In this document: in pieces, positions 23,406 to 47,390 of the stretch
Layout: each line of letters opens with the position of its first letter
Position numbering within the stretch: position 1 is the first letter of the stretch
DNA from: Candidatus Nomurabacteria bacterium
GTDB lineage: Bacteria; Patescibacteriota; Minisyncoccia; Phycocordibacterales; UBA918
NCBI GenBank assembly: GCA_023898565.1
Contig: CP060228.1
Location: forward strand, 776,930-840,929
Direction: 5' to 3'
DNA: 64,000 nucleotides
Notes under the pieces: generated by a model
What the model was told of the DNA's origin: nothing
Seen by the model: the letters and a program-made list of their open reading frames with translations, nothing else
Database searches by the model: none
Translations under genes and position numbers: made by a program

Positions 23406-24728
23406 ATGGCAAAACCGCTCATTGTAGCTCGGGATCTTTCGATTATTTACAATCAGGGTAAATCGAATGAATTTAAAGCCCTGCAAGGGGTGAATACTGA
23501 CATCTACGAAGGTGAGTACATTATTTTGTTCGGTCCGTCAGGCTGTGGAAAATCTACACTCATGTACTCCATTCAAGGTTCTTTACCGCCAGGTGAGGGA
23601 ACGCTTCTTATCAAGGGTGATGACGTGTATGCGTATCCGCCTGCAGAGCGCGTGTATTTTCAGCGCCACGTGATGGGTATTATTTTTCAGCAATTCAACC
23701 TCATCATGTCACTATCAGTGCTTGATAACGTGGCTCTGCCAATGATTTTTTGCGATGCCGATAAAGCAACGAGAGAACGACGTGCCCAGGCTCTGCTTGA
23801 TCGTTTTGGGGTAGGACATGTTTCCCATAAGCTGCCCATGATGCTCTCTGGAGGACAGCAGCAGCGTGTGTCAGTAGCGCGGTCAATGGTTAACGACCCT
23901 AAAATTCTTTTGGCTGACGAGCCAACGGGAAACCTCGACTCGGTTTCTACGCAACAGGTGATGGATAAAATTGACGAAATTAACACGTTTGATCGCCGAA
24001 CGATTATCATGGTGTCACATAATGCGGCGCATCTTAGTTATGCGCACCGTGTGTACTATCTAAAAGATGGTTGGATTTTACGCGAGGTCGTCAATCCGCA
24101 ACGAAAGCAAATCAAGCCTGTAAATGAGGGAGAGACAATTGTAACTGAGCTTGAGCAGCTTGCCCGTTTGTATCCGTACGATTCGGTGGAGACATGGCGC
24201 GTTAAAAGTATGGTTAATTTTTTAACCCAACAATATACATTTGATCAGCTTGGCAAGCTTGAGCGTGCAATCAATTTCTTCATCCAAGGCAAAATTGACC
24301 GGGACGCTTTCATAAAGGCTCTCATGATGCCGCTTGAGCGAGGAGGAGTCGAGATTTCGGAAAAAGAAGCACGTCACATGGCTGGCGTGGTGGCAAAGAT
24401 GATGGATCAGGCAGCCGACGTGCGAAGGTTTAGAGCGAGAAAAGAAAATGACAACGTGTTCTTTAGTCAGCATAAGCTTGCAGAGCGTCTAAAGGAACAT
24501 TTATTGCACCAGTATCATATTAAGCTTACCAAAGAACAAGATACCAACATGACCGAGCTCATTGCTGACCGTGTGACGGGCGTAATCGAGGAACCTGCTA
24601 TGAACGAACGAATGTTGCAAGGTATTCGAGCTGGCGGACTCGGCCTGTCTGAGCGTGAAGCCGATGATCTTACTCGATACTTTGAAAAAGTCATCGCTCA
24701 AGGCGTTGATGTAGACTATAAGAAATAA
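23406..24728 (+). CDS. ABC transporter ATP-binding protein (MacB/LolD/FtsE-like) with a C-terminal extension of about 215 aa and unknown function
   Basis: It has Walker A 'GPSGCGKST', signature 'LSGGQQQRVSVARSM' and Walker B 'LLADEPTGNLD'. The start at 23406 is preferred because the upstream ATG at 23325 lies before the terminator hairpin. Confidence 0.85.
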   Translation: MAKPLIVARDLSIIYNQGKSNEFKALQGVNTDIYEGEYIILFGPSGCGKSTLMYSIQGSLPPGEGTLLIKGDDVYAYPPAERVYFQRHVMGIIFQQFNLIMSLSVLDNVALPMIFCDADKATRERRAQALLDRFGVGHVSHKLPMMLSGGQQQRVSVARSMVNDPKILLADEPTGNLDSVSTQQVMDKIDEINTFDRRTIIMVSHNAAHLSYAHRVYYLKDGWILREVVNPQRKQIKPVNEGETIVTELEQLARLYPYDSVETWRVKSMVNFLTQQYTFDQLGKLERAINFFIQGKIDRDAFIKALMMPLERGGVEISEKEARHMAGVVAKMMDQAADVRRFRARKENDNVFFSQHKLAERLKEHLLHQYHIKLTKEQDTNMTELIADRVTGVIEEPAMNERMLQGIRAGGLGLSEREADDLTRYFEKVIAQGVDVDYKK

Positions 24729-24730
24729 TT

Positions 24731-25945
24731 ATGCGTGTACAAGATCTTGCATCACTCTCCACTCGAATGTTTAAAACGAACCCAATGCGTACGTGGTTGA
24801 CGATTCTTGGTATGGGAGTAGGGACCGGAGCCGTGGTAGTTTTGGTGGGACTCGGTTTCGGTTTGCAGCAAATTATTTTGGAGCAAATTGTGTTCGGTGA
24901 AACGCTGCTTTCGCTCGGTGTTTCCTCTACCGGAGCACAAGGCCTACGTCTTACGCCAGAAACAGTAACGAGCTTTGAAAATATGACTGAAGTGCTTGAC
25001 GCTGCGCCGCTGGCACGTTTTCCGGCACTTATTACCTTTAAGGGTCTTACCGGCAACGTTTTCGTGCAAGGAGTCGAACCACCATATTTGCGCTACGCTG
25101 GTGTGACCGCACAAGCTGGCACGGTGTTTACTGATGAAGATGCTGGAGACGCTAATTCAATCATGATTTCACCAGCAACCCTTAAGTTGTTTGGTGTGGC
25201 TGATGACGAGATGGATAGTTTTATTGGCCAAAAAGTTTCTATTCGTCTTCTGGTGCCTGCAAATGATGGAACGGACAACGTAAACGAAATTCTGATTGAT
25301 AAAGAGTACACCGTGAGAGGCATCACCAAAGAGGAGGCTGTTTTGAACGTCATGATGATGTTGCCAGAATTGCGTAATCACGTCGGTATTGAAGAGTACG
25401 AGCGCATACAGGTGCGTGTGGATACGAATGAAAATCTGCCAATCGTAGAAGAACGCTTGATTGAAGAGGGGTATAGAGTGTCAGCTCTCTCCAAGACAGT
25501 GGAGCAGGCGTCAAAAATCTTCCAGGGTATCCAGGTGGTACTTGCCACGTTCGGAGGTATTGCCCTCGTTGTGTCTGCTATTGGTATGTTCAACACGATG
25601 ACCGTTACTTTGCTCGAGCGTACTAAAGAAATTGGAATCATGCGTACTATCGGTGCCTCGCCTAATGATGTGAAATATCTCTTCGTGTCGGAGTCTATTG
25701 TGGTAGGTTTTCTCGGCGGTCTTAGCGGTATTTTGATGGGGGTCGTTCTGGGGGTGACGGTGAATGTTTTCCTCAATATTGTGGCTGGACAATTTGGTGG
25801 CCAGTCGGTAAGGCTGTTCTCATTCCCACTGGACTTTTTGAGCTTTATTGCACTTTTTTCTGCGGCTGTAGGATACTTGACCGGTATTTTCCCAGCCAGC
25901 CGTGCATCAAAACTAAACCCGCTTGATGCAATCAGATATGAGTAG
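24731..25945 (+). CDS. ABC transporter permease of the FtsX/MacB family (N-terminal TM, large extracytoplasmic domain, C-terminal FtsX 3-TM bundle)
   Basis: The C-terminal motif is 'ERTKEIGIMRTIGASPNDVKYLF...'. It lies 2 nt downstream of the ATPase stop. Confidence 0.85.
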   Translation: MRVQDLASLSTRMFKTNPMRTWLTILGMGVGTGAVVVLVGLGFGLQQIILEQIVFGETLLSLGVSSTGAQGLRLTPETVTSFENMTEVLDAAPLARFPALITFKGLTGNVFVQGVEPPYLRYAGVTAQAGTVFTDEDAGDANSIMISPATLKLFGVADDEMDSFIGQKVSIRLLVPANDGTDNVNEILIDKEYTVRGITKEEAVLNVMMMLPELRNHVGIEEYERIQVRVDTNENLPIVEERLIEEGYRVSALSKTVEQASKIFQGIQVVLATFGGIALVVSAIGMFNTMTVTLLERTKEIGIMRTIGASPNDVKYLFVSESIVVGFLGGLSGILMGVVLGVTVNVFLNIVAGQFGGQSVRLFSFPLDFLSFIALFSAAVGYLTGIFPASRASKLNPLDAIRYE

Positions 25946-26057
25946 TGGATAGGCGCAGCGTTATCCACAGAAAGTTCATTTCTCTGTGTATAACTCGTCA
26001 TCGAGGGAAGAAGTTATCGTTACAATGTTAGTAAAAGTAATTTAGAAATTTATTGTT

Positions 26058-27941
26058 ATGTCGTACAACCGAGAAGAGCTTCCGCGCTACGTGCGCACAG
26101 CAGGGAAGATAACGATCGTTACCGCCTTAGCTGGTTTATTAGTGTTTATGGTCGCATTTATGTTTGATGTGGGGACACAGGAATTCAATCGTGTGTCTGC
26201 ACAGACAGCTACTACGACTCTAACCGTGCTTAATACGCCGCCGCAATTTACCTTAAATGCACATGAGCAGACAGAGTCGTCAACCTCAACCCCGACCAAC
26301 TCTGGTGATCAGATTGTCTGGAACGCAATTGGAGAGGATAGTAACGGTGCACCGTATTTCTTGCTCATTTGCAGCACTAATGCGTCACCAACTGCCAATC
26401 AGGCAGCTGATGCTGGAAGTCTGGGAACAGCGCCGCCTGACTGTGGTGTAGGTGCGACGCAGTGGGCCGTTTCCACTAGTACGACAAGTGGGGCAGTAGC
26501 AACAGCTGCAACAACCACGACTGAAGCTGCGCCATTCGCAGAAATTCAAGAGTGGTACGCGTGGGTATGTGACGACGACCCATTCAATCCGCGATGTAAC
26601 AATATTCCAGTCCAGGGTTACAGCGCAACAAATTCATCTCCGTTCAACGTAAATAGTCGTCCTGTACTCACCGATTTCGGTAACGATGGACCAGCTGATC
26701 CTGGAGCTACTCTCGTATTCCACTCAACATCATCCGACCCGGATGTGGTTGGTGGGGAAGATGCAATCTATCTTGTGGTTTGTAGCTCAAACACTGACTA
26801 CAATGCCACACTCAACACTTGTCCAAACGATTTTATCGCTTCAACTACCATTACTATTTTGAGTGATGCTTCGGCAACCTACACATTGCCAGCAATCATT
26901 CGAGATGATACATACGCTGCCTATGGGTACATTGTGGATGAACACGGCCACGAAGCTACTGCTAACCCGCTTAACCAGGACTTTGATGTAAACAACGTTG
27001 CTCCGGTGGTATTGAGTGGAGACATTGATCTCAACGGTGGTTCTGATATCACGCTCACTATTCCAGCTGGTGAAACACCAAGTACGACACTTGATTTCAC
27101 CATTAGAGATGCTAATAGCTGTTTAACGGCAGCTTCAACTACTGATGAAATCGCTAGCTTCACCGTATCGATTTTCCGGTCTGGTGTCGGAACAACAACC
27201 TGTGATGGAAGCGCTGGTTCATATGATCCAAACAACTGTTATCCAAGCGGTGTGCCAACTGCAACCTGGAACCTTTCTTGTACTGCTACCACCACCTGTG
27301 CAAGTCCACTTCAGGACTACATGGATTACACGTGTGAATTCCCGCTCTGGTTTATTGCAGATCCTACCGACTCTGGTCCTGAAACACCAGCTGCACTTGC
27401 TGCACAAAATTGGTCAGCCGGTGTGTCTGGGACCGACGATGATGGTTTGACGGGTCCAATGTCAACGACCTCAAATCCTGTTGAATTAAATAGCTTTACT
27501 GCCATTGATATTGAAAGTGCCCAGATTGCCTATGGATCAATTGAGCCAGGAAGTGATTCTGGTACACTGTCTGCAACTTCATCGGCGCTCAATGTGGGAA
27601 ATACAGGCCTTGACCAGGAAGTCCGTGGAGATTCAATGTGTGGCACCTATAGTCCATCTACACCATGTAGCAATTCAGCTACTTCTACAATTCCTGACGA
27701 TCAGCAGAAGTTCGCCTCTACCTCGTTGTCATACGCAAGTGGGTTGGCTTTCGCGCTGTCTTCTACCACAAACCAGGAAGTAGAACTTAACATTCCAAAA
27801 ACAACAGGTACTTCAAGTGCCTCTTGGGAACAAGATTATACTTACTGGGGTATCGCAGTTCCGGTAGCGATTACTCTTGCCGGTAACTACCAAGGCCTTA
27901 ACACCTTTACTGCAGTGACTGCAGAAGCAATCGACTGGTAA
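26058..27941 (+). CDS. Secreted surface protein (627 aa) whose C-terminal domain of about 150 aa is homologous to the C-terminus of the giant protein (WxL-like?)
   Basis: It has an N-terminal signal/anchor. Its C-terminus 'DYTYWGIAVPVAITLAGNYQGLNTFTAVTAEAIDW' matches 'DEIYWGIEVPFGIASNPHNGVNTFTAISD' at the end of the giant ORF. Confidence 0.7.
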   Translation: MSYNREELPRYVRTAGKITIVTALAGLLVFMVAFMFDVGTQEFNRVSAQTATTTLTVLNTPPQFTLNAHEQTESSTSTPTNSGDQIVWNAIGEDSNGAPYFLLICSTNASPTANQAADAGSLGTAPPDCGVGATQWAVSTSTTSGAVATAATTTTEAAPFAEIQEWYAWVCDDDPFNPRCNNIPVQGYSATNSSPFNVNSRPVLTDFGNDGPADPGATLVFHSTSSDPDVVGGEDAIYLVVCSSNTDYNATLNTCPNDFIASTTITILSDASATYTLPAIIRDDTYAAYGYIVDEHGHEATANPLNQDFDVNNVAPVVLSGDIDLNGGSDITLTIPAGETPSTTLDFTIRDANSCLTAASTTDEIASFTVSIFRSGVGTTTCDGSAGSYDPNNCYPSGVPTATWNLSCTATTTCASPLQDYMDYTCEFPLWFIADPTDSGPETPAALAAQNWSAGVSGTDDDGLTGPMSTTSNPVELNSFTAIDIESAQIAYGSIEPGSDSGTLSATSSALNVGNTGLDQEVRGDSMCGTYSPSTPCSNSATSTIPDDQQKFASTSLSYASGLAFALSSTTNQEVELNIPKTTGTSSASWEQDYTYWGIAVPVAITLAGNYQGLNTFTAVTAEAIDW

Positions 27942-27964
27942 CGCATATCTCCAATTAGCACAAA

Positions 27965-28005
27965 AGCAACAGCCACTGTTATCCAGCAGTGGCTGTTGCT
28001 TTTTA
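27965..28005 (+). terminator. Rho-independent terminator
   Basis: The 13-bp perfect stem GCAACAGCCACTG / CAGTGGCTGTTGC has loop TTATCCAG and is followed by TTTTT. Confidence 0.8.
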
Positions 28006-28037
28006 GGTACTTTTTATCGATAATATGTAGCATACAC

Positions 28038-28994
28038 ATGAATAGGGTTGTGCAAAATTTCGTGATGCTTGTTCTTTTTTTACCTGTGCTTTTTTTTAGC
28101 ATGGGTGCGCAGCATGTATTTGCTGGCTTTGGTATCACACCGCCGTATGTGCGAAATACAAGCCTAACTCGCAATTCAACGTACGAGCAGCAGATTCTTC
28201 TCGTTCGCAGTGACACGAATGTCGGGCAGATAGCTGAAATTTCTGTTGATGCTCCAGAAATTGAAAGTTGGATACAAATCGTTGAAGGTGAAGAAATTCA
28301 CATGCCCAAGGGTGCTCAAAAAGTGCCAATGACAGTGCGAGTTACAGTACCGTCTGACGCTGAATTTAAGGATTACGAGGGTGCCATTCGCATCCGTACA
28401 CTACCTGAAGATGGGAAGGTGTCACCGGGAGCTGTCAGTATTTCCCTCGGCGCACTGGTAGATATTAGTCTCTCTGTTATTGATAAACAAATCAAAGATT
28501 TTCGTGTTCGCAAAATTTCAGCGGCAGATTTAAACGAAGGACACAAAGTAGCCTGGCTCTATTTTCCGGGAAAAATTGATTTTGACATGATGATTGAGAA
28601 TACCGGTAACGTGGACATTGCACCGTCGAAAATTGAATTTAGAATTTTTGATAGAGCAGGTAAGGTGTTACTTGAAGAAACAAAAAACATCGGAAAGCTT
28701 GTAAAGGTTGCGCCGTATGGAACAGAGACAATTACCGCAGAGCTCCCGACTAGGCTTCCAGCCGGTAGTTATGTCGCTAGATACAGAATCTTCAATGGTG
28801 AGGACATTAAGCAGGAAGGAGACATTAGCTTAAATATCCTTGCGTACGGCACATTGCAGACAGCAGGTTTTGGTTTCATTGGTCTTTCTTTTGCTCACAA
28901 GATTTCAGTACTTCTTCCAATCTTCGCACTTGTTATTGCCGGTATTTACGCGTGGCAGTCACGACAAAAGGATAAAGTTCGTCGTCGCAGGTAA
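28038..28994 (+). CDS. CscA-like (DUF916/DUF3324-like) cell-surface protein with a signal peptide and a C-terminal TM anchor plus basic tail
   Basis: The signal peptide is followed by 'FGITPPYV...' and a 'DYEGAIRIRT' motif reminiscent of DUF916. The C-terminus is 'LLPIFALVIAGIYAWQSRQKDKVRRRR'. It is paralogous to the genes at 44196 and 45187. The family assignment is from memory. Confidence 0.55.
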   Translation: MNRVVQNFVMLVLFLPVLFFSMGAQHVFAGFGITPPYVRNTSLTRNSTYEQQILLVRSDTNVGQIAEISVDAPEIESWIQIVEGEEIHMPKGAQKVPMTVRVTVPSDAEFKDYEGAIRIRTLPEDGKVSPGAVSISLGALVDISLSVIDKQIKDFRVRKISAADLNEGHKVAWLYFPGKIDFDMMIENTGNVDIAPSKIEFRIFDRAGKVLLEETKNIGKLVKVAPYGTETITAELPTRLPAGSYVARYRIFNGEDIKQEGDISLNILAYGTLQTAGFGFIGLSFAHKISVLLPIFALVIAGIYAWQSRQKDKVRRRR

Positions 28995-28996
28995 GT

Positions 28997-30103
28997 ATGA
29001 AGTACCTCTTCTTTTTCTTCACCCTAAACATTCTTGTGGTGCCAACTTTTCTGCTGGCAGCAACACTCGATTACGCAACTACTACGCTAAGTGTAAGTAT
29101 TTGTGGAAACTCTATTGTGGATTCGGGCGAACAGTGCGATGTGCCTGGAGAGACTGGAGTGTACAGTCAAACAATTGCAGGTAGGCAGTGTACAGCTTCC
29201 TGCAATTTTGGTCCGTACTGTGGTGACGGTATTCTCCAGACCGTACACGGAGAAGAGTGTGATGATGGTAATAATGATAACGGTGATTTTTGCTCCGCGC
29301 TTTGTAAAATTGAGCCAGCAGGTTCTGGCGGCGGCGGTTCGTCTGGCGGCGGTTCGTCTGGCGGCGGCGGAAGCTCAAAAAGTGTTGGTGATACTTTAAT
29401 CAGCATCATCGGAAGAGCGTATCCCTCTCGTACAATAAACTTTCTTCTTGATACAGAGACCGTAGGCACGGTTCGTTCAGGCAGTGACGGACGTTTTGAA
29501 TTTACAACCGAGGCAGATCCAGGCACAGCTACGTTAGGCATCTGGGCTAATGACGATAGTGGTAACCGCTCAATCACTCTTAACAACACGTTTGATGTAA
29601 CGCAAGGCGCAATTACAAACATCAATGGTGTCATTCTGCCGCCAACCATTTCTGTGCCCAGCCAGAATGTTGATCCGGGTGCTGCGGTAACAGTGTCGGG
29701 ACAAAGTGTGCCAGGGTCAACCGTAGAACTGCATGTTGACAATAGTTCACTTATTGAAAAAGCAACGGCGGGTAGCGACGGTAAGTGGAGTATTCTTTTT
29801 GACACCTCTAAGATTTCAATAGCCGAACACACGCTGCGTGCTCGTACTATTACTGATACACCCCCACTTACTACCAATAGTAGCTTTAGTGCCTCACTGC
29901 AGCTGTTTGTTGGTGTTGAAGGTCGCGCGACCACGCCATCTGATCTTAATCGTGATGGGTTCATAAACTTGATTGACTTTTCTATTCTGATTTTCTGGTG
30001 GCAGACTGACGGCGGTGACTCAAATCCACCAGCAGATATCAATGGTAATGGGCGAGTGAGTCTGGAAGACTTTTCTATTTTACTTTTCAACTGGAGTGGC
30101 TAA
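28997..30103 (+). CDS. Secreted protein with two Myxococcus-type cysteine-rich repeats, a Gly/Ser linker, Ig-like domains and a C-terminal dockerin-like domain
   Basis: The cysteine-rich repeats read 'CGDGILQTVHGEECDDGNNDNGDFCSALC'. The linker is GSGGGGSSGGGSSGGGGSS. The dockerin-like Ca-binding repeats are 'DLNRDGFINLIDFSIL' and 'DINGNGRVSLEDFSILLFNW'. Confidence 0.7.
   Translation: MKYLFFFFTLNILVVPTFLLAATLDYATTTLSVSICGNSIVDSGEQCDVPGETGVYSQTIAGRQCTASCNFGPYCGDGILQTVHGEECDDGNNDNGDFCSALCKIEPAGSGGGGSSGGGSSGGGGSSKSVGDTLISIIGRAYPSRTINFLLDTETVGTVRSGSDGRFEFTTEADPGTATLGIWANDDSGNRSITLNNTFDVTQGAITNINGVILPPTISVPSQNVDPGAAVTVSGQSVPGSTVELHVDNSSLIEKATAGSDGKWSILFDTSKISIAEHTLRARTITDTPPLTTNSSFSASLQLFVGVEGRATTPSDLNRDGFINLIDFSILIFWWQTDGGDSNPPADINGNGRVSLEDFSILLFNWSG
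29321..29377 (+). repeat. Tandem nucleotide repeat (ggcggcggttcgtct x2 plus variants) encoding the Gly/Ser linker
   Basis: It is directly visible as 'ggcggcggcggttcgtctggcggcggttcgtctggcggcggcgg'. Confidence 0.8.
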
Positions 30104-30430
30104 CACCTGCCTTGCGGCAGGTTTTGCCGTTTTTATAAACTCATGAATGAATGTGTGAAATTATGCATTTCAGAAATAAAATTTTGTGAATAAACTAATT
30201 TTTAAAAAAACTCTTGCGGTAAAATTAAGTTGTACTTGCAAAGGAGGTAATCAATTAGCATTACTGCTTGTATCACATACGAGGGCACTTCAGCCGAGTG
30301 TTACTTTGTAGGTATGCTTACAGTGTATTTTGTTGTAGTCGGAGTGGAGACCGTACTACACGCATGGGTTTTTGCCCATCTGTTTTTACACCACAAAAAC
30401 AGGCTGTGAGTCTAATACAACGTAGAGTAT
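30104..30430 (+). promoter_or_regulatory. AT-rich upstream region of 327 nt (putative promoter plus long 5' leader) with an orphan strong Shine-Dalgarno sequence (AAGGAGGT at 30241-30248) that is not followed by a start codon
   Basis: It is very AT-rich (tttttaaaaaaa, taaaat). The SD-like element lies about 180 nt upstream of the ATG at 30431. The -10-like TAGAGT sits 3 nt before the ATG. Confidence 0.35.
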
Positions 30431-31588: not shown

Positions 31589-31620
31589 TAAAATTGGCTT
31601 CAAGCTTGGAGTTAACAAAC

Positions 31621-31657
31621 AAAAAACCCTATCTCCCACCACGAGAAGGGTTTTTTG
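31621..31657 (+). terminator. Rho-independent (potentially bidirectional) terminator
   Basis: AAAAAACCCT pairs perfectly with AGGGTTTTTT around a 16-nt loop. An A-tract lies upstream and a T-tract downstream. Confidence 0.8.
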
Positions 31658-31707
31658 CTTGTGTACAGAGCGGATTATTTGTAAATGAGGTTGCTATACT
31701 GTGTGTA

Positions 31708-35226: not shown

Positions 35227-35234
35227 ACTGGAGT

Positions 35235-35978: not shown

Positions 35979-36001
35979 TGTGTAAGTCAAAATATGTTGA
36001 T

Positions 36002-36029: not shown

Positions 36030-36095
36030 TGGTATCATATGTATGTGGTATAGCCGCCACATCGGTACAACGTAGAGCGTGTTCTCAATACAAGA

Positions 36096-37949: not shown

Positions 37950-37991
37950 CATGGTTTTTGCTTAATTTATCTTGTAAAATATAGATAATTT

Positions 37992-40900: not shown

Positions 40901-43900
40901 TGGTGCCACGTCGGCAACAGGGGGGGCAGAAAACACGGCGCTGGCTGATCTTGAGAACGGTAGCGCAATCAGGTTGCGTATGCAAATTTCTAATGAGGGA
41001 TCGACGACCTCTGTGCCTCGTCAATATGGGCTGGAATACGGAGTTAAAAGCACCACTTGTGATGCGATTAGTGTTTGGACGGACGTGGATGGCGGTGGGC
41101 TCATTTGGGCAATGAGTGATTCAAGCAATTTGACGCACGGCGCTGACACTACAGATGTTTCTGTTGGTTCAGGAGGTGTCAGTAACCCCGGTGGTAAAAC
41201 ATTTTTAACACCAAATGGAGGGGTGCGTGATATCTCATCATTTTCAGCTACTACCACACTTACGAATAGCCAATTTACAGAATTTGAGTACAGCATCACA
41301 ACGACAGAGGACACGCCATACGAGACTGATTTCTGTTTTCGTTTAACGCAAAATGGATCACCGCTATTGGCTTACACTCAGTACGCAGAACTCAATATTG
41401 AACCAAAGCGCGATTTTAAGATACAGCAGGGAGAATCAATTGTAAGTGGAACCGGTCTCACACTAACTGCGGGAGTCGACTACGAAGCACCAAGTTCTGC
41501 TTCTACTGCTTTTGTTCGGATTACAAATTCACACATGACTGGCGCAGGGCGCGATGCAGCAGGCGGTGCACAAAATGCAGACGACTACGGTGCGTACATC
41601 TCAAATCCAGCAAATCTTACAACGAGTTTTACCATCTCACGCGATACTGACTCAATCAATAATACCTATGTCGCTTGGGAAATTATCGAGTATGTCGGCG
41701 CGGCCGGCGGAGACAATGAAATTATTGTGAGAGACCAAAGCACGCTGAGTCTCGGTACTACCGCAAATACTGCCACTGGTTCCGCGGTGCCAACGGTCGC
41801 TGACGATGCGGATGTTGTGGTGTTCATTACTGGGCAGATGCATCATACCGGTAATCGAACTGAGACGTATTCCCACCAGTTCACATCAACGTGGAGCGCA
41901 GGTTCTGGTGAGCCAACGTTTGAGCGCGGAGATAATGGTGGTAATGCGGCAGAAGTGAGCTATGCGGTAGTAGAGTTTACTGGCCTCAATTGGAAAGTGC
42001 AGCGCACTGAGCACAATTACGCTGCCGCCGGAGTGACAGAAACTGAACCAATTACTGCAGTAAATAGTCTTGGACGAACATTTATACATGCACAAAAGCG
42101 ATACACAGCAGTTAGCGGCATTGGTAATGTGGGGCACGAAGTCTGGCTCTCGAGTATTGGAGCGGTTTCGTTTGAGGTCAACAATCTGGCAACAATCACA
42201 GGGGTGACACACACCTCCGTTGCCTGGATTATTGAAAATACTCAAACCGGAACTGGTGCCATGTCTGTGCAGCGTAGTTCTGGTAATACTACGGGTGGAA
42301 CGGAGCCTGTTCTTATTTCACTACCTATTTCTACGAGTCTCAACTCTGTAAATAATGCTTCTATCTTTGTCACGACAGACGTTAATCAAACGGGAGACAC
42401 GATGCCCCGACCAATTGCCGGTGCCTTCATCACATCAACTTCTACCTACCAGCTTTGGCGCAGTGAAGCCTCTGGCGGTGGTGTTTTGAGCTATCGTACG
42501 GAGATTGTGCAATGGCCGGCAGCTGACCTCGCCATTCGGCAAAACTATTACCGTCTGTATGCGGATAATGATGACCTTACCCCCTCCGATCCGTGGCCAA
42601 TTGGTGCGTACGACTTGGGTGAAAATGCTCCCATTACTGCTGTCGATGAGCCGCCGGCGGATGGTGGACATATTCGAGTACGTATGACGTTGCAAATTGC
42701 AAACGCAACACTGCCAAGTGGGTTCTTGACTACGAAACTACAATACGGTGAGCTAGAAACGACTTGTTCTGCTGTTTCTGTCTGGAGCGATGTGGGGGCA
42801 GCTGGAAGTGGTGCTATCTGGAGAGGATACGATGCTGCAGGAATAGTTGATGGCGCTTCTTTGTCTGGTAATCCACCGACTGGTGGTGATTTGCTTATCT
42901 CAGTGGCTGATCGAGCGGGTCGCTACACTGAAAGTAACCCTAGCTCTGCAAACCAGTATGCAACTTTGCGAACTGAGGATATTGAATATGATTGGCACAT
43001 TGAACACAACGGGGCTCCACAGCGTACAACGTATTGTTTTCGCATGGTTAAGGCGGATGATACTGAACTAGACGGATATTTTTATTACCCACAAATTCGC
43101 ACTGAAGGGTATAGTCCTGCAACGCAGAATTGGCGTTGGTATGATGACGAGACAAACGAAACCCCTTCGCTCGCACTTGCTGCCGAAAATGTTACGCCAA
43201 CCGGTCTGCCTGACCAGAATGAAATAAAACTTCGCATCAGCTTGACTGAGCTTAAGAATCTGTCGCAACTAAATGCCCGCTTCAAGTTGCAATATTCTGA
43301 GTCGCCAAACTTTGGCATTGCGTATGACTTGTCTGCGACCACATCGTGTACAGCCAGCTCCTTGTGGTGTTACGCTGACGGTGCAGGGGTCGATACTGCA
43401 CTCATCACTACAAGCGTGCTTAGTGACAGTGACGGCTGTGTCGCAGGGGTTGGTGATGGTTGTGGTACACATAACGAAGCAGGATACGCAGTAAATGGTT
43501 TTACCCATTATGGCAACAGAACGATTGAAAATGAGTTTACGATTAAATATAGCAGCGCCACGCGCAACTTCGGTAAAGTGTATTACTTTAGGTTATACGA
43601 CGTCACCAACGATGAGCCTGTCGCAGTGAATAATGGCTACACGATTCCCTCAATCGGAGTTGATCCAACATCACTCACGTTATCGGTTAACGGTGTCAAC
43701 AGCGGAACGTCTATCGCAGGAATCACAACTGACGTGACGACTACCGCAACGGGCGTGGATTTCGGCTCTTTGCCAGTCGGGAGCTCAGTAGCTGCGGCAC
43801 AGGATATTGATGTGAGCACCAATGCGACGGAAGGGTATCAACTACTTGTATTCAATACACAAGGATTATTAAATTCATACGGTGATGCAATCAATCCAAT

Positions 43901-44183
43901 AGCAAGTACTAATGCGGCCCCGCAGGGTTGGACAGCGGCTTGTGATGGTTCGACGGGTTGCTTTGGTTATCACACTACTGACGCCACTTTATGGGGAGGC
44001 TCAACCAGGTTTGCTCCGATAGACTCCTACGCACCATTAAGTACAAGTCCAGAAGAGATTATGTATAACTCAGCCTCGAGTAGCGAAAGTCACTCAATTA
44101 TTTATCGTGTGAGCGTTACTCCCGATCAACCAGCGGGCGACTATACGGCTGATTTGCAGTACATTGTGATTCCAGTCTTTTAA
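37992..44183 (+). CDS. Large surface protein (2,063 aa) with an N-terminal BNR/Asp-box beta-propeller, four copies of the 'WRxDDG...YCFR' domain, an internal tandem duplication of about 1 kb and a C-terminal WxL-like domain
   Basis: The N-terminus has a signal/TM. BNR motifs are 'SNGGTSWG' and 'SGGSWTN'. The WR...CFR repeats are 'YHWRNDDN...GYCFRLT', 'YHWRYDDGDE...DFCFRLT', '...TYCFRMV' and 'WRWYDDE...YYFRLY'. The C-terminus is 'GDYTADLQYIVIPVF'. Confidence 0.85.
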   Translation: MLWRKRFWSRCIVPVAGLLLALVWVEAIRFAVPLDRLISVFTLVQAAEVTIDSAVSTTPTEHHILGSQTVFVSDQVGYKFYTNSNGTCVYNKTSNGGTSWGTEVTFDSQTDCWGVVVWYDQWTAGDTGNYIHIISADSSSDVVWYNRLDTTSDTLLLGSTPVNVSSNSGQTGTLATAANNPSITKATNGVLYIAIADNTDSYVVECSASCGSATSWTETGTNPMDLQPDKSLILPLADGDIILIQRDRSADDMRSKIWDDSAGTWSGTWTIIDANAIENSTYDPSFAAMADPDSGDIFLVYIDNGTTGAIGGGNDNIRTAKYSGGSWTNTANVVTNSAMGLTKLSMAMDGNNSEIYVAFSARVTPGTANTANIYWATSTAAMSSWGSVQGPVNSTPDDMYGVDLNNYNKERIYVSWYQPAIDDILGDTIANISPITVVSSFGTQSSEVRASSTDTYIGGGFAIVENSASRNVTDIIISENGSVDAANALDNIKLYYDLDTSAPYDCASESYSGTESQFGSTDTNGFSGADGVSAFTGSVGISPTTAMCVYVVMDVLKVAVDGSTLDVEISNPATDVLVSGSVTAVPPTAQQIGGTTNIVDSDLTQTHYHWRNDDNIELLATSRTGGAEDIPLTALQKETPVRLRFGVSNEGSTTTLPTTLRLEYATNPSVCSAATGWTDIDVVDDAWNLYDSTYVVNGTDTTDISVASGGVDNENSVFLTPNGGQLDTSSETGSLAFLPTNWTEVEYAIVASSSAQEGDGYCFRLTNAGEPLPQYNTYPSAVIAADVRVRATSTQIAAADIPADNVYLGGAFTITENSSARTVSGITITENGTVDASAGLANIRLYYDLDTSAPYDCASESYSGTEFQYGATSSAFSAANGTSTFSDAVGITTTQTMCVYVVADVTETAQNGENINILLASPATDIVVSGGGTVSPSTPLDINGSTTLAGAIVTQTGYHWRYDDGDETSSGATSATGGAENTALADLENGSAIRLRMQISNEGSTTSVPRQYGLEYGVKSTTCDAISVWTDVDGGGLIWAMSDSSNLTHGADTTDVSVGSGGVSNPGGKTFLTPNGGVRDISSFSATTTLTNSQFTEFEYSITTTEDTPYETDFCFRLTQNGSPLLAYTQYAELNIEPKRDFKIQQGESIVSGTGLTLTAGVDYEAPSSASTAFVRITNSHMTGAGRDAAGGAQNADDYGAYISNPANLTTSFTISRDTDSINNTYVAWEIIEYVGAAGGDNEIIVRDQSTLSLGTTANTATGSAVPTVADDADVVVFITGQMHHTGNRTETYSHQFTSTWSAGSGEPTFERGDNGGNAAEVSYAVVEFTGLNWKVQRTEHNYAAAGVTETEPITAVNSLGRTFIHAQKRYTAVSGIGNVGHEVWLSSIGAVSFEVNNLATITGVTHTSVAWIIENTQTGTGAMSVQRSSGNTTGGTEPVLISLPISTSLNSVNNASIFVTTDVNQTGDTMPRPIAGAFITSTSTYQLWRSEASGGGVLSYRTEIVQWPAADLAIRQNYYRLYADNDDLTPSDPWPIGAYDLGENAPITAVDEPPADGGHIRVRMTLQIANATLPSGFLTTKLQYGELETTCSAVSVWSDVGAAGSGAIWRGYDAAGIVDGASLSGNPPTGGDLLISVADRAGRYTESNPSSANQYATLRTEDIEYDWHIEHNGAPQRTTYCFRMVKADDTELDGYFYYPQIRTEGYSPATQNWRWYDDETNETPSLALAAENVTPTGLPDQNEIKLRISLTELKNLSQLNARFKLQYSESPNFGIAYDLSATTSCTASSLWCYADGAGVDTALITTSVLSDSDGCVAGVGDGCGTHNEAGYAVNGFTHYGNRTIENEFTIKYSSATRNFGKVYYFRLYDVTNDEPVAVNNGYTIPSIGVDPTSLTLSVNGVNSGTSIAGITTDVTTTATGVDFGSLPVGSSVAAAQDIDVSTNATEGYQLLVFNTQGLLNSYGDAINPIASTNAAPQGWTAACDGSTGCFGYHTTDATLWGGSTRFAPIDSYAPLSTSPEEIMYNSASSSESHSIIYRVSVTPDQPAGDYTADLQYIVIPVF
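39363..41400 (+). repeat. Intragenic tandem duplication (2 units of about 1.05 kb) in the 2,063-aa gene, including a 54-bp identical stretch at 39483-39536 and 40536-40589
   Basis: 'ctcgacaccagcgcgccgtacgattgtgcgagtgaatcatacagcggtactgaa' occurs twice. The flanking peptides 'GGFAIVENSASRNVTDIIISENGSVDAANALDNIKLYYDLDTSAPYDCASESYSGTE' and 'GGAFTITENSSARTVSGITITENGTVDASAGLANIRLYYDLDTSAPYDCASESYSGTE' are colinear. Confidence 0.85.
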
Positions 44184-44195
44184 TGAATAAATGGT

Positions 44196-45212
44196 ATGAT
44201 TAAGACTAAGATGAAAAGAGGGTTCACTCAATTTCTAAATGCCATTACGATTGCGTTGGTCATATTTCCTTTAGCATCACAAGCATCTGATGTGACTGTT
44301 CGTCCATTTCTTATAGACCGAACGCTTTTACCTCGAGACACAGCAACGGAAACAATCACTATTAAAAGCGATTACGATATTCGAAAAGCTGTTCTTTTTG
44401 CAACGGTCAATGAGATTACTCTAGACTCTGAGGGGGAAATTAAAGAGTTTGTTTCTCCAGTAATGACCGATCGAACCAACACTATTACTAGTTGGATCGA
44501 GGTGTCCCGTGGTCGAATTGAAGTCCCGCCGGGTGAGACTGTTGAAGTTCCACTGACCGTACGAGTACATCCACAAGCTCAGCCAGGTGAGTACACGGCA
44601 TTTATTGGGTTGGTTGAAGCGGCAAATCGAGACAAGGCGGAAGCCATTGCTCTGGCTGGTGAAGCGAAGGGTGTATTACTTAAAGTGACAGTGAGTGATC
44701 AGCGTAAGGAAACAATGAGCATTACCAGCTTTATGATTAATCGATTCGTGACTGGTGAAGCTCGGAAGAAAATTGAGATTAGTGTTGAAAATAAGGGTGA
44801 TATCACCTCTGCACCAGCCGGAGAAATTATATTTTACGATTCTCGGGGGAGAGAAGTTGATTCTGTTACGGTAAAGGGAGAAGCTATCAATCCTGGTGAA
44901 ATGGGCACGCTTACTAGTGTTGTTCCTCTTTCTGAAAAATTGGGTCGCTTCAAGGCGAATGTGACCTTGCATTATGGTGACACACAGCAAGCCTCATTGT
45001 TTGATACCACATACTTTTATCTTGTGCCGATGTATCCACTGTTAATGCTGTTTGGCATTGTACTACTCATTTCAATTGCGATTGCTTTGATGTTTAGACG
45101 CGCATTCTTTAGTCACGAATCACCTGATGATTACCATGAAGTAACCATGTATGTTCGTGACGGACACGAACCTAACCCGCAAGATCATGACATCGACCTT
45201 AAACAAAACTAG
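44196..45212 (+). CDS. CscA-like (DUF916/DUF3324-like) cell-surface protein with a C-terminal TM anchor
   Basis: The signal peptide is followed by 'DVTVRPFLIDRT...'. The motif 'QPGEYTAFIGLVEA' is present. The C-terminal TM is 'LLMLFGIVLLISIAIALMFRR'. Confidence 0.55.
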   Translation: MIKTKMKRGFTQFLNAITIALVIFPLASQASDVTVRPFLIDRTLLPRDTATETITIKSDYDIRKAVLFATVNEITLDSEGEIKEFVSPVMTDRTNTITSWIEVSRGRIEVPPGETVEVPLTVRVHPQAQPGEYTAFIGLVEAANRDKAEAIALAGEAKGVLLKVTVSDQRKETMSITSFMINRFVTGEARKKIEISVENKGDITSAPAGEIIFYDSRGREVDSVTVKGEAINPGEMGTLTSVVPLSEKLGRFKANVTLHYGDTQQASLFDTTYFYLVPMYPLLMLFGIVLLISIAIALMFRRAFFSHESPDDYHEVTMYVRDGHEPNPQDHDIDLKQN

Positions 45213-46881
45213 TTCACTGCTAGCCTCGCTGCTATTCTTTTGTGGCATCACGTTTTTTCCTTTTGCGTCAGAAGCGGCGGATGGCTCAGTTACCTTAAGT
45301 GTGTCTCCAACACTCTATGAGATGAGTGCAGATCCAATGCAGGTCTGGACCAGCAATGTGCGAGTCATAAATCCAAATGGTTTTGATTTAGATGTATATG
45401 CACGGGTGGTAAATTTTGAAGCGCAAGATGAAACCGGTCGAGCTAGCTTCTTACCGGTTCTGGACGCGGCAACGACTGAAAACACTCTGGCAGAATGGGT
45501 CCATTTAGATCAGGATTCGTACACTATTCCAGCGGGCCAAACGGTTGAGATTCCGTTTCAAATCTCAATTCCAAAAAGTGCTCCACCCGGAGGTCACTTC
45601 GGAGCGATAATGATTGGAACTCGACCCCTTAGCAATGCGAGTGGTCAAAGCTCAGTAGAAACGTCACAAGTAGTAACGTCGCTCATTTTTTTGCGAGTTA
45701 CTGGTGACGTGGTTGAGAATGGCAGCATTCGTGAGTTCCGTAGCAGTAAGCGCCTCGCTGAAAAACCAGAAATGTCTTTTGAACTACGCTTTGAGAATAC
45801 CGGTAACGTGCACGTATTGCCGCAGGGTGAAATACGCATATTTAATATGTGGGGCCATGAGCGAGGTGTTATACCAGTAAATCGACAAACCATGTTTGGT
45901 AATGTGCTTCCAAATAGTGTTCGAAAGTATAGCTTTAGCTGGTCTGGTGAGTGGTCCTTGGCTGACATTGGAAGATACACTGCCGTTGCCACTTTGGCCT
46001 ACGGTGAAGATGGTCGAAAATTTACTGATGCAGAAACCGCTTTCTGGGTATTGCCTTGGAAAGCTGTTGGCTCTGTGTTGTTGCTTATCTGCAGTTTCTT
46101 CTATTTCTTGACCTGGGCAATTAAACTATACGTTAGAAAAATGCTTAAACTAGCAGGAGTCACTTCCGTAATGTCAGAGCAGCCTGCAGAAATGCACCAG
46201 CAGACAAAGGCGCGCAAACAGGTCGCAGAAGCTGGCAATACTGATACTCGGCATATTCTAACTAACGGGAAGGCGAAGAGGCTTTCTATCGTCGCACCGT
46301 TTGAGGAAGGCATGCTTGACCTTAGAAGTCGTTTCAAAAATTCGGTGACGTGGCGCGAGTACACAAAACAGGCATGGTTTTTTATTACTGCGTACAAAAC
46401 ATTCTTTATTGCTGCTGTGCTGTTTGCTGTCTTTGTTTCACTCGCTTTCTGGTTTTTGGATTCAGTCAAAGAGGAGAGAGGGTTTAATATCACTATCGAT
46501 GGGATTGATCAAAACATCACACTTTCGTCAGAGCAAATGCAATATGAAAACATGCGTAAGGAGTCGCCTGCAACAACTCAAGTAAAAATGAAAGGTACAC
46601 CATCAATAACCGTGATCAATCGTAGTGGTGTGGCAGGATTAGCGGCTGAGTGGAGACTGCGACTGGAACAAGAAGGATATGCGGTGGGGGAACTGAGAAA
46701 TGATCTTGATGCTGCGGAAAGCAAGACGGTCATTGTGTATGAGAGTAGCTATACAGATGAAGCATTAGTCTTGAGTGAACTTCTCCATGGAGCACTGCTT
46801 TCAGCAAACACAAACAGTGATGCAAAGGCAGAACCGTTAATTATTTATATCGGCAATGATTTGCAAAATGCGGTAGAATAA
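45187..46881 (+). CDS. CscA-like (DUF916-like) surface domain fused through two TM helices to a C-terminal LytR_C-like domain
   Basis: The DUF916-like motif is 'PPGGHFGAIMIGTRP'. The TMs are 'VLLLICSFFYFLTWAI' and 'FFIAAVLFAVFVSLAFWFL'. The C-terminal block 'ITVINRSGVAGLAAEWRLRLEQEGYAVGELRN...TVIVY' resembles LytR_C. The start at 45187 (MTSTLNK) overlaps the upstream gene by 26 nt. Confidence 0.55.
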   Translation: MTSTLNKTSSLLASLLFFCGITFFPFASEAADGSVTLSVSPTLYEMSADPMQVWTSNVRVINPNGFDLDVYARVVNFEAQDETGRASFLPVLDAATTENTLAEWVHLDQDSYTIPAGQTVEIPFQISIPKSAPPGGHFGAIMIGTRPLSNASGQSSVETSQVVTSLIFLRVTGDVVENGSIREFRSSKRLAEKPEMSFELRFENTGNVHVLPQGEIRIFNMWGHERGVIPVNRQTMFGNVLPNSVRKYSFSWSGEWSLADIGRYTAVATLAYGEDGRKFTDAETAFWVLPWKAVGSVLLLICSFFYFLTWAIKLYVRKMLKLAGVTSVMSEQPAEMHQQTKARKQVAEAGNTDTRHILTNGKAKRLSIVAPFEEGMLDLRSRFKNSVTWREYTKQAWFFITAYKTFFIAAVLFAVFVSLAFWFLDSVKEERGFNITIDGIDQNITLSSEQMQYENMRKESPATTQVKMKGTPSITVINRSGVAGLAAEWRLRLEQEGYAVGELRNDLDAAESKTVIVYESSYTDEALVLSELLHGALLSANTNSDAKAEPLIIYIGNDLQNAVE

Positions 46882-46910
46882 GAAGAATTATTAGTGTAAG
46901 TAAAACTACT

Positions 46911-47390
46911 ATGAGTCAAAAAACAATCATTCTCATCGTGACACTCTTTGTGCTCATTATCATTGGGATGTTTAGTTATGCACATCTAAAGAAAGTAGAA
47001 CTTGAAGCGGTGCCGACGCCAAGCGAGGAAGAACAAGCTCCTTCTGTCCCGTATCCAAACATTACACGTATTGATGCGAAACACTATTTTATTGATGGCG
47101 TTCATACACTCGTGGGTGAAATTGAAATGCCAACGCCGTGTGATTTAGTGGAATCTTCTGCACTTGTTATGGAGTCGTATCCTGAACAGGTTATGGTTGA
47201 TTTTACCGTGATAAACAATGCGGACATATGTACGCAGGTTATTACTGCACAGCGCTTTAAAGTAGCTTTTCAAGCCTCGGAAAACGCTTCAATAAAAGCA
47301 GTTTTTATGGGTAGAGAAGTTACTCTCAACCTTATTCCAGCTGCCGCAGGCGAAACACCTGACGAATTTGAATTATTCATTAAGGGGTAA
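46911..47390 (+). CDS. N-terminally anchored hypothetical extracytoplasmic protein (159 aa)
   Basis: The TM is 'IILIVTLFVLIIIGMF'. No known motif was found. It is immediately followed by the next gene (TAAATG). Confidence 0.55.
   Translation: MSQKTIILIVTLFVLIIIGMFSYAHLKKVELEAVPTPSEEEQAPSVPYPNITRIDAKHYFIDGVHTLVGEIEMPTPCDLVESSALVMESYPEQVMVDFTVINNADICTQVITAQRFKVAFQASENASIKAVFMGREVTLNLIPAAAGETPDEFELFIKG

Follow-up and report, generated by a model that had tools for sequence, protein, structure and literature searches.

The stretch of DNA described here is a 64-kb window of contig CP060228.1 (throughout, the window means this whole stretch, with positions counted from its first letter), in which the predicted genes, labelled G0-G22, include a long array coding for secreted and membrane-anchored surface proteins (Table 1). 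Bacteria of the candidate phyla radiation (CPR; Patescibacteria) make up a large part of the diversity of bacteria and live attached to other cells, and to our knowledge almost nothing is known of how Parcubacteria-type lineages hold on to their hosts. An original prediction, made from the letters alone, had read positions 23406-47000 as an integrated surface-display module of a reduced-genome organism and as a candidate for host attachment. That the organism is of this kind is borne out by the G7 protein, which is 100% identical to a hypothetical protein of 'Candidatus Kaiserbacteria bacterium' (Patescibacteria group; Parcubacteria group). As detailed below, the locus probably codes for an usher-less, chaperone-assisted donor-strand surface fibre or adhesin system that is kin to the Pam pilus and to the WxL/WxLIP (Csc) clusters, a reading that we hold with moderate confidence.

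Pilin-like, WxLIP-like and cohesin-dockerin proteins of the locus

The evidence for a pilin-like subunit comes from the C-terminal domains of G7 and G13, which we term class I. Residues 222-385 of G7 match the NCBIfam model CPR_Pam_pilin_C over its full length with 17.9 bits, and this model, the sole one to match recurrently, is matched by 22 of 32 members of the G7 family (best E-value, 1e-7). The isolated C-terminal domain of G13 also matches over the full model length (E 1.7e-6, 28.2 bits), and its orthologs reach up to E 5.4e-9 and 36.3 bits. Note that the curated NCBI cut-off of this model is 55 bits; judged from sequence, the G7/G13 domain is remotely related to the C-terminal domain of Pam pilins and not a member of that family. 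The two domains are likewise homologous to each other, with 33% identity between the C-terminal domain of G7 and residues 1893-2063 of G13 (E 9e-12; hhalign probability 100%). The original prediction had called such proteins WxL-like, a label that needs correcting, as Pfam WxL (PF13731) has no match at E<=10 for any protein of the locus or isolated C-terminal domain. The same is true when the isolated C-terminal domains of both classes (class II is described below) are searched together with their orthologs. Profile searches of the PDB with the G7 family and the class I C-terminal domain gave chance-level matches only, such as CfaE (E 0.6) and CpcG2, and reached neither PamA/B nor WxL.

The layout of G7, a protein of ~36 kDa when mature and with >1699 homolog clusters, was derived from an AlphaFold2 model (predicted local distance difference test score, pLDDT, of 80) with a sandwich at residues 40-185, a C-terminal domain at 199-385 and, between the two, a linker of low confidence at 190-194. 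Overall, an N-terminal signal or membrane helix is followed by a beta-sandwich (~40-185), a linker strand (186-203) and an immunoglobulin (Ig)-like domain (204-385) that ends in DDYTATLTYVATPVF. The linker, VTVTASVDTQFTFTV, is conserved with alternating hydrophobics, and in a diverse family alignment it forms together with the last strand the most conserved segments of G7. This modelled arrangement of N-terminal sandwich, linker and C-terminal domain appears to be that reported for PamA and PamB, the pilins of Ca. Mycosynbacter amalyticus filaments solved by cryo-EM, where the linker completes the C-terminal domain of the adjacent subunit by donor-strand exchange (bioRxiv 10.64898/2026.03.03.709456). 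In these pilins the linker and the C-terminal strand are again the most conserved parts, and PamB has a mass of 38.7 kDa (bioRxiv 10.64898/2026.03.03.709456).

A second set of proteins, G5, G14 and G15, resembles the WxLIP proteins, which consist of DUF916, DUF3324 and a transmembrane helix, hold their two Ig-like domains at right angles, and have a strand that is predicted to insert into the WxL domain (PMC10599100). G15 itself scores 19.6 bits against WxLIP_PGBD (DUF916, PF06030), under the cut-off of 27.3 bits. However, this family is matched by 27 of 32 G15 orthologs (best E 2.3e-9), a precomputed PF06030 is borne by ~20 of 120 G15 orthologs, and one ortholog has been named 'DUF916 domain-containing protein' by NCBI. 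A tblastn search from G15 also leads to plasmids of Actinobacteria and Deinococcus with annotated DUF916 genes, and annotated actinobacterial DUF916 proteins score 62-64 bits with the hidden Markov model (HMM) of the G15 family and 31-47 bits with that of G14. The G15-family profile has only chance-level matches in the PDB, for example to a LytR_C-like peptide, so that WxLIP is not reached there by sequence. WxLIP_HBD (DUF3324, PF11797) was never reported in Pfam scans of the locus proteins or of G15 orthologs. G14, with a transmembrane helix at residues 272-290, and G15, whose true start is perhaps the ATG at 45187, are paralogs (blastp E 1.6e-15, hhalign probability 100%), and G5 is a more distant paralog of both families (hhalign probability 93-98%).

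Since a Pfam scan of the G5 family gave weak E-set/Ig matches (CopC, TcfC) and no DUF916, its family membership rests on hhalign and on fold. Starting from the ATG at 28038, as judged from ortholog lengths of ~317 amino acids (aa), the AlphaFold2 model of G5 (pLDDT 77) has a signal peptide, beta-sandwiches at 31-147 and 155-268 and a helix at 285-317. Foldseek comparison with the PDB matches this model to the E. faecium locus A WxLIP bound to long WxL (9i25_C, 5.8e-9) and to 9i1y, as well as to FimC (3sqb_C, 2.5e-8), PapD, CfaA, SafB and Caf1M (2.5e-8 to 3e-7). From the model, G5 may be a chaperone or an anchor of the PamR kind. The CscA/DUF916-like anchors of the original prediction are thus retained, for G15 and G14 on family-level evidence and for G5 from profile comparison and fold, with the reservation that G15 itself is sub-threshold; the LytR_C domain that it assigned to one anchor is found on G15 at 41.7 bits, above the Pfam cut-off.

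On Streptomyces and Clavibacter plasmids (L084 2867-5825 and L085 3990-5804) we observed that the DUF916 gene is preceded by a gene for a secreted protein. These are a 646-aa RICIN-domain protein and a 208-aa hypothetical protein, and their ends, GDYAGTLTLTLL and GDYSSTITLSLFE, form a terminal strand motif similar to that of G7 and G13. The HMMs of both C-terminal-domain classes are not significant against these actinobacterial neighbours, which have the terminal motif alone in common with them. The motif hints at a pairing of partner protein and DUF916 that would reach well beyond Firmicutes and CPR.

The proteins G0 and G4 share a different, class II C-terminal domain. Specifically, the C-terminal ~240 aa of G0 are common only to G4 (32% identity, E 4e-16; hhalign probability 100%, E 5e-64), and neither G4 nor this domain belongs to a Pfam or NCBIfam family. 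We considered whether class II is a divergent form of the class I domain and rejected this (hhalign probability <2%, no NCBIfam or Pfam match). G4 has 14 Cys residues and an N-terminal membrane helix. G0 has two DUF2341 and Laminin_G_3/pentaxin-like lectin domains (Pfam), and since its frame is open to the window start, with no stop before nucleotide (nt) 21 and no signal peptide there, its 5' end must lie off the window. Both classes thus consist of a small and a giant protein (G7 with G13, G4 with G0), and WxLIP-like genes come after each pair, G5 after G4 and G14 and G15 after G13. The defining layout of WxL clusters is a small WxL protein (WxL domain only), a large WxL protein and a WxLIP (PMC10599100). 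A small protein, a large protein and a WxLIP-like gene thus reproduce that layout here.

G13 has a signal peptide, a possible degenerate sialidase-like propeller, a long Ig-rich middle and a C-terminal domain of ~170 aa. It and the >7250-aa G0, which lies outside the interval of the original prediction, are putative giant adhesins of the conserved block. The two beta-propellers of the original prediction fared less well. The BNR propeller of G13 has a BNR_4 match of E 0.015 only, no canonical SxDxGxTW Asp-box and no PDB sequence match, and the PD40 propeller of G12 has sub-threshold NCBIfam matches (beta_prop_Msarc repeat E 5e-8, TolB E 7e-5) and neither a Pfam nor a PDB sequence match in the propeller region.

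The cohesin and dockerin assignments were evaluated against Pfam cut-offs of 24.1 bits for Cohesin (PF00963) and 22.9 bits for Dockerin_1 (PF00404). G9 has a cohesin of 29.4 bits, a Big_13 domain of 44.6 bits and a transmembrane helix, and its orthologs and paralogs match Cohesin too (25.8-35.7 bits). All three domains of G6 are past their cut-offs (DUF4215 39.8, Big_6 40.1 and Dockerin_1 29.4 bits). In G11 the dockerin is above the cut-off (24.5 bits) and the cohesin just under it (22.2 bits), with an hhalign probability of 99.9% to the G9 domain. Both calcium-loop repeats (DxNxDG; DxNxDGxI in G6) are present in the G6 and G11 dockerins. G8, whose probable start is the ATG at 31708 (signal peptide MKRGTYLFF...VYA) and whose transmembrane helix is at 335-353 of the open reading frame (ORF), is a paralog of the N-terminal domain of G9 (hhalign probability 100%), and the cohesin-like domain is common to G8, G9 and G11 at probabilities of 99-100%. 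Hence the predicted cohesin/dockerin scaffolds and Cys-rich dockerin cargo hold, as cut-offs are passed on separate proteins (G9 for cohesin, G6 and G11 for dockerin). We also considered the N-terminal domain of G7 as a cohesin that is open to dockerin decoration and rejected it at an hhalign probability of <20% against G8, G9 and G11. G10 has no Pfam or NCBIfam family, and no glycoside hydrolase, carbohydrate esterase, polysaccharide lyase, carbohydrate-binding module (CBM) or S-layer homology (SLH) domain is matched by Pfam in G0-G17.

At the upstream end of this set, G2 matches Pfam ABC_tran with 113.7 bits, and G3 matches MacB_PCD with 64 bits and FtsX with 60 bits, all past their cut-offs, so the MacB/FtsX transporter of the original prediction is upheld. 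The nearest solved structures are 5xu1_A, YtrE, the MacB nucleotide-binding domain (NBD), LolD and FtsE for G2, and YtrF (5.7e-31), MacB and LolF/C/E for G3. By sequence, then, G2 and G3 together are a type VII 'mechanotransmission' ABC transporter. Residues ~230-440 of G2 form an extension of ~200 aa with no Pfam or PDB match, though the gene is ~80% identical across relatives. The fibronectin domains of G1 are matched by Pfam fn3 and Pur_ac_phosph_N (E ~1e-22). At the downstream end, G17 (47391-47954) has AhpC-TSA and Redoxin matches, yet it has zero Cys and its WCxxC site reads WSPKS, so that it is presumably a redox-inactive binding protein. The genes 3' of G17 are housekeeping genes (AI-2E transporter, PGA_cap, FKBP, TGT and others).

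Table 1. Positions, strand and predicted nature of the genes and non-coding elements of the block
Feature	Position in window (nt)	Strand	Description
G0	1-21773	+	giant secreted protein, >7250 aa, 5' end beyond the window
G1	21778-23349	+	N-terminal membrane/signal helix and three fibronectin type III domains
G2	23406-24728	+	ABC ATPase with ~200-aa C-terminal extension
G3	24731-25945	+	MacB/FtsX-type (type VII) ABC permease with large extracytoplasmic domain
G4	26058-27941	+	627-aa secreted protein, class II C-terminal domain
G5	28038-28994	+	WxLIP/PapD-like membrane-anchored candidate chaperone or anchor
G6	28997-30103	+	secreted; Cys-rich DUF4215 repeat, Big_6 Ig domain, C-terminal dockerin
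G6-G7 leader	30104-30430	+	long intergenic gap with conserved blocks
G7	30431-31588	+	385 aa, candidate major fibre subunit
Hairpin 3' of G7	31621-31657	+	terminator-like, conserved
G8	31708-32778	+	signal peptide, cohesin-like domain, C-terminal transmembrane helix
G9	32744-34537	+	signal peptide, cohesin, Big_13 Ig, transmembrane segment, charged cytoplasmic tail
G10	34537-35226	+	229 aa, N-terminal membrane helix
G11	35235-35978	+	cohesin-like domain and dockerin (adaptor)
G12	36096-37949	+	secreted; acidic low-complexity N-terminal half, possible PD40/TolB-like beta-propeller C-terminal half
G13	37992-44183	+	2063-aa adhesin-like protein, signal peptide, C-terminal domain homologous to that of G7
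G14	44196-45212	+	signal peptide, two-domain WxLIP/DUF916-like region, C-terminal transmembrane helix
G15	45151-46881	+	WxLIP/DUF916-like two-domain region, two transmembrane segments, C-terminal LytR_C
G16 and G17	46911-47954	+	small membrane-anchored protein; membrane-anchored thioredoxin-fold protein; membership of the module uncertain

Conservation of the block and the elements around G7

When the species representatives of GTDB were scanned with the G7 family, 80 loci were recovered, mostly from Kaiserbacteria, Nomurabacteria, Paceibacteria and Parcubacteria. When collinearity is counted over the 36 loci that have full 10-kb flanks, G2-G13 are collinear on one strand in 28, and 27 of these also retain G1 and thus have the full G1-G13 order. 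G0 is syntenic in relatives as well. The median identity in relatives is highest for G3 (83%), followed by G2 (80%), G1 (71%), G5 and G6 (65% each), G7 (58%), G4 (52%), G9 and G13 (51% each), G8 and G11 (48% each). It is lowest for G12 (41%) and G10 (37%), and G10 is syntenic nonetheless. Three further relatives (L081-L083), found via G15 orthologs, keep G11-G17.

In addition to this full-type arrangement there are compact loci with other flanks. In a Harrisonbacteria genome (L071) the compact locus is contiguous between the unrelated metabolic genes PfkB and FBP aldolase and comprises genes for a protein with a G13-like C-terminal domain, a G14-like protein, a G15-like protein, a G7-like pilin, a WxLIP_PGBD protein, a dockerin protein, a G8-like protein and a protein with cohesin and Big_13. 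In a second such locus (L072) a pilin, a WxLIP_PGBD protein, a dockerin and a cohesin are interspersed with MgtE/CBS, ABC exporter and HSP20 genes. Some single genomes contain both locus types. Pilin, WxLIP-like, dockerin and cohesin genes thus occur together repeatedly and whatever the genomic context, which, together with the collinearity of G2-G13, agrees with the original expectation that the module is conserved as a unit in related genomes. The idea of a conserved module dedicated to the cell surface, in which components of the WxLIP/DUF916 type are combined with cohesin-dockerin proteins and a MacB-type ABC transporter, is supported.

Two observations on individual loci are of note here. 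The MgtE/CBS magnesium transporter gene of L072 (13122-14120) lies between the WxLIP-like and dockerin genes, and it recalls the CorB-like CBS-domain magnesium transporter beside the pam operon (bioRxiv 10.64898/2026.03.03.709456). In L035 (JBDNIW010000014.1) the G7 ortholog and the hairpin that follows it are succeeded by G8/G9 fragments and then by AI-2E, FKBP and TGT, with a G14/G15-like gene upstream; this locus is a natural reduced variant, in which the downstream part of the module has been lost and the flanks kept.

The limits of the module and the use of strand as evidence both need revision. The block is real, but the original interval of 23406-47000 is too narrow, since the conserved block reaches upstream to G0 and G1. 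That its genes are co-directional is correct as an observation: from nt 1 to >=62.9 kb the large genes are all on the + strand with small gaps or overlaps. It does not, however, count as evidence for an operon, since the whole window, housekeeping genes included, is on this strand. Because all gene-sized ORFs are + and the cumulative GC skew climbs monotonically over 1-64000, the strand bias belongs to the replichore rather than to the module. A scan for sigma-70 promoters and terminators gave chance-level results overall, and an Rfam search of 21-49 kb returned no meaningful family match.

Several non-coding elements lie around G7. The top-ranked site of the scan is a terminator-like hairpin at 30114-30130, just past the stop of G6. 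The gap between G6 and G7 measures 268-1183 nt in all 41 relatives and contains blocks of >=90% identity, including TTTGTGAATAA, AAGGAGGT (~180 nt upstream of the G7 start) and GGAGTGGAGACCG. A possible function of this region is that of a structured or stabilising 5' leader; alternatively, it may encode a small leader ORF. Directly 3' of the G7 stop lies the hairpin at 31621-31657, with an A-tract before and a T-tract after it (AAAAAACCCTATCTCCCACCACGAGAAGGGTTTTTT) and a fold z-score of -2.6. Its core, TCTCCCACCACGAG at 31632, has an invariant apical sequence (TATCTC-CCACCAC-GAGA), and 61 of 78 loci have it 3' of their G7 ortholog, with no other occurrence in 1.39 Mb. Across the alignment 89.8% of the cells in the stem are paired, relative to 45-67% in slid controls, 7 pairs have changed on both sides, and the outer A/T stem covaries. 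The hairpin has no Rfam family. Its invariant loop suggests a protein or RNA binding site beyond plain termination, and leader and hairpin together would fit a G7 that is separately and highly expressed with regulated read-through. Finally, we noted a near-perfect inverted repeat, AGCCACTG-TTATCCAG-CAGTGGCT, at 27971-27995 between the G4 stop and the G5 start, which gives spurious two-strand Rfam miRNA matches and may be a terminator or processing hairpin.

A possible donor-strand fibre and its alternatives

We propose that the components, all of which have signal peptides or signal-anchor helices, would be exported by Sec. By analogy with the Pam pilins, G7 would be an abundant shaft subunit that undergoes donor-strand complementation and polymerises, with its incomplete Ig-like C-terminal domain filled by the linker strand of the next G7 to give a linear fibre. 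G13 would enter the same fibre as an adhesin via the common C-terminal domain, which lies behind ~1900 aa of putative binding domains, comparable to a large WxL protein or to FimH/PapG. The WxLIP-like proteins G5, G14 and G15, with their C-terminal membrane helix, may cap open C-terminal domains until strand exchange occurs, anchor the base, or both, and the LytR_C domain of G15 would tie the base of the fibre to the wall. G0 and G4 would form a second small-plus-giant set with a different C-terminal domain, served by the adjacent G5. A calcium-dependent plug-in that displays accessory proteins on the same surface could be formed by the membrane cohesins (G8 and G9), to which G6, with its dockerin, and the adaptor G11 would be tethered. 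More speculatively, G2/G3 might convert cytoplasmic ATP into mechanical work outside the membrane, such as the release or maturation of membrane-held subunits. The role of the whole is likely that of reaching and binding a host cell or a substrate, and host attachment can be reasonably inferred by analogy with Pam pili and WxL clusters.

Several results weigh against this proposal. All matches to CPR_Pam_pilin_C are under 55 bits, the best being 36.3. When G7 was compared by fold with the PDB, in copies that lack the PamA/B structures, all matches were generic two-Ig adhesins and pilins, and the WxL chain of 9i25 and chaperone-usher pilins were not among the near-top matches. The G5 model matches RbmA about as well as FimC. 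For a PamT-type tip subunit there is a single weak match, in a G13 ortholog (E 0.036). Both G1 and the MacB-type transporter occur solely in the full-type locus and are lacking in L029, a locus that otherwise retains G4-G13, and the transporter is missing from the compact loci; their link to the fibre is weaker for this reason. In L081-L083, moreover, synteny runs on through AI-2E, PGA_cap, FKBP, TGT, HD, UvrB and a response regulator. Since synteny continues into housekeeping genes, collinearity alone does not delimit the module. G16 and G17 are syntenic in these three relatives, as are the housekeeping genes that follow, and they are missing from the compact loci.

These last points raise the question of whether there is an integrated machine at all, as individually acting surface proteins and an unrelated MacB-type transporter could be held together by general collinearity and strand bias. 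The common + strand of all genes in the window, the synteny that is unchanged through housekeeping genes, the chance level of the promoter and terminator scans and the absence of the transporter from the compact loci and L029 would all agree with this. However, pilin, WxLIP-like, dockerin and cohesin genes recur in L071 and L072 with other flanks and as second copies per genome, and the internal paralogy of the locus (two pairs of C-terminal-domain proteins, three WxLIP-like proteins, three cohesins and two dockerins) implies partners. A cohesin and a dockerin are, in addition, a binding pair by definition. We thus find a mere assortment of neighbours improbable. A closer competitor to a polymerising fibre is a static complex of the WxL/Csc type, in which G5, G14 and G15 permanently complement the C-terminal domains of G7, G13, G4 and G0 and hold them at the membrane or wall, so that these act as single adhesins and no fibre is made, as has been proposed for the WxL clusters of Firmicutes. 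The DUF916/WxLIP homology of G14 and G15, the fact that the top specific structural match of G5 is a WxLIP bound to WxL, and the small-plus-large pairs beside a WxLIP-like gene, which is the layout of WxL clusters, all favour such holding, and three WxLIP-like genes for four C-terminal-domain proteins are compatible with a 1:1 arrangement. In contrast, it is the Pam pilin model alone that matches the C-terminal domains, with Pfam WxL unmatched. The N-terminal domain and conserved linker of G7 are typical of polymerising Pam pilins and unlike a small WxL protein, and the leader and terminator that G7 has of its own suggest a stoichiometric excess over its partners. A static complex is therefore rather unlikely in our view. 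Finally, the high conservation and probable abundance of G7 and the presence of cohesin and dockerin domains could also point to an S-layer, with G7 as its lattice protein, or to a cellulosome-like polysaccharide-degrading assembly whose enzymes are organised by cohesin and dockerin. This is highly improbable, given that G0-G17 have no glycoside hydrolase, CBM or SLH domain, and that G7 is small, near PamB in mass, and matches the Pam pilin model and no S-layer family.

The presence of Pam-type pilin domains beside DUF916/WxLIP-type partners suggests that the Pam and WxL literatures describe related systems. In architecture and proposed action, WxLIP is the same as PamC/D. As a broader idea, which we offer tentatively and regard as possible but doubtful, the Pam pili of CPR, the WxL/Csc clusters of Firmicutes and the loci with DUF916 in Actinobacteria and Deinococcus would be one ancient family of monoderm usher-less systems that rely on a membrane-anchored chaperone and on donor-strand complementation, with the present locus as the link. 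In Paceibacteria this family would have developed into a more elaborate machine of at least 47 kb, with a G7 shaft, adhesins of 2000 to >7000 aa, cohesin-dockerin decoration or anchoring, and a MacB-type ABC transporter that powers extracytoplasmic assembly. We know of no donor-strand pilus with ABC-powered extracytoplasmic assembly.

The block takes up ~5% of a ~0.95-Mb genome and, housekeeping regions aside, ranks with the most conserved parts of dozens of species-level genomes. If Pam-like fibres are built from it, then the recently found Pam class of pilus extends to the largest class of CPR, and Pam pili become linked at the level of sequence to the WxL/DUF916 clusters of Gram-positive bacteria, which have long been enigmatic. 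Concrete candidates are thereby at hand for the shaft, the adhesins, the chaperones and the anchors. The cohesin-dockerin genes and the type VII ABC transporter within the block point to new, testable principles of assembly, and the conserved RNA hairpin after the putative shaft gene offers a handle on regulation.

Comparison with known systems

The closest comparison is with the Pam pilus (NCBIfam NF058581, NF058579). Its operon codes for FimC/PapD-like chaperones, PamC/D, with a C-terminal transmembrane helix, an RbmA-like anchor, PamR, that consists of two fibronectin type III domains plus a transmembrane helix at its C-terminus, and a tip protein, PamT, that is a C-terminal domain only, and it has no usher (bioRxiv 10.64898/2026.03.03.709456). 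The present locus is similarly CPR-specific, Sec-exported and usher-less. Two-Ig PapD-like proteins with a C-terminal transmembrane helix are encoded beside the pilins (G5, G14 and G15 here), and G7 shares with the Pam pilins the pattern of conservation in linker and C-terminal strand. As regards a PamR-like anchor, G8 and G9, which are Ig/cohesin proteins with a C-terminal transmembrane segment, could serve. However, there are important differences. The locus scores as a remote relative under the curated cut-off, and it belongs to Parcubacteria/Kaiserbacteria rather than to Saccharimonadia or Microgenomatia. It has proteins of 2063 and >7250 aa with pilin-type or second-type C-terminal domains. 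DUF916/WxLIP can be detected in its chaperone-like proteins, one of which is a fusion with LytR_C, and cohesin and dockerin proteins and a MacB-type ABC transporter lie inside the block. No PamT-like gene was found in the locus, and there is no ATP synthase or CorB neighbourhood in the window. The text and supplement of the Pam preprint make no mention of WxL, DUF916, cohesin, dockerin, ABC transporters, Paceibacteria or Kaiserbacteria.

The WxL/Csc clusters of Firmicutes (PDB 9i1y, 9i25) have in common with the locus a small and a large protein that share a C-terminal domain and are encoded beside a two-Ig protein anchored in the membrane. G14 and G15 are homologous to DUF916, the model of G5 matches a solved WxLIP, and the motif DDYTATLTYVATP in the C-terminal strand is similar to the end of WxL domains, YxGxLTWxL. 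In contrast, Pfam WxL finds neither C-terminal class and Pfam WxLIP_HBD is not detected, the locus lacks an LPXTG CscD-like protein, the host lineage is different, and the additional N-terminal domain and linker of G7 are suggestive of polymerisation. Chaperone-usher pili (Pap/Fim, CFA/I, Caf1) are more distant. They resemble the locus in that the partner proteins have a PapD/FimC-like two-domain fold, the subunits are Ig-like, a candidate donor strand with alternating hydrophobics is present and the adhesin has a pilin-type C-terminal domain. The present system, in contrast, has neither an usher (PF00577 is unmatched in the locus) nor an outer membrane, and its chaperone-like proteins are anchored in the membrane. 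As candidate donor strand it has a linker between domains in place of an N-terminal extension, and no homology is detected at the sequence level.

With cohesin-dockerin assemblies, both cellulosomal and non-cellulosomal, the locus shares type I dockerins and cohesins that are above or near the Pfam cut-offs, one adaptor protein with both domains and membrane-anchored cohesin proteins. Here, however, Pfam finds no enzymes or CBMs in G0-G17, the cargo is a Cys-rich Ig protein, and the domains sit within a pilin/WxLIP-type locus of a CPR bacterium. Similarly, G2 and G3 have the separate NBD and the four-helix FtsX permease with MacB periplasmic core domain of type VII ABC transporters (MacB/LolCDE/FtsEX/YtrEF), with YtrEF and Spr0694-0695 as nearest solved relatives. 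They differ by the absence of a MacA/HlyD-type membrane fusion partner (no HlyD or biotin-lipoyl-like match among G0-G17), by the unexplained C-terminal extension of the NBD and by an unusual genomic association with a surface-fibre locus.

The original prediction held that this is not a described system. This needs to be qualified, as a core of pilin and membrane-anchored chaperone is known from the Pam pilus (bioRxiv 10.64898/2026.03.03.709456), whereas the combination was not found described. No literature on CPR cohesin-dockerin systems or on this combination was found in a library that is incomplete, which is no proof of absence. Overall, the locus falls short of the curated thresholds of Pam (<=36.3 versus 55 bits) and of Pfam WxL and has the architectural features of both. 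It is set apart from both by its lineage, its giant proteins, the second class of C-terminal domain, the WxLIP-LytR_C fusion, the cohesin-dockerin set and the type VII ABC transporter.

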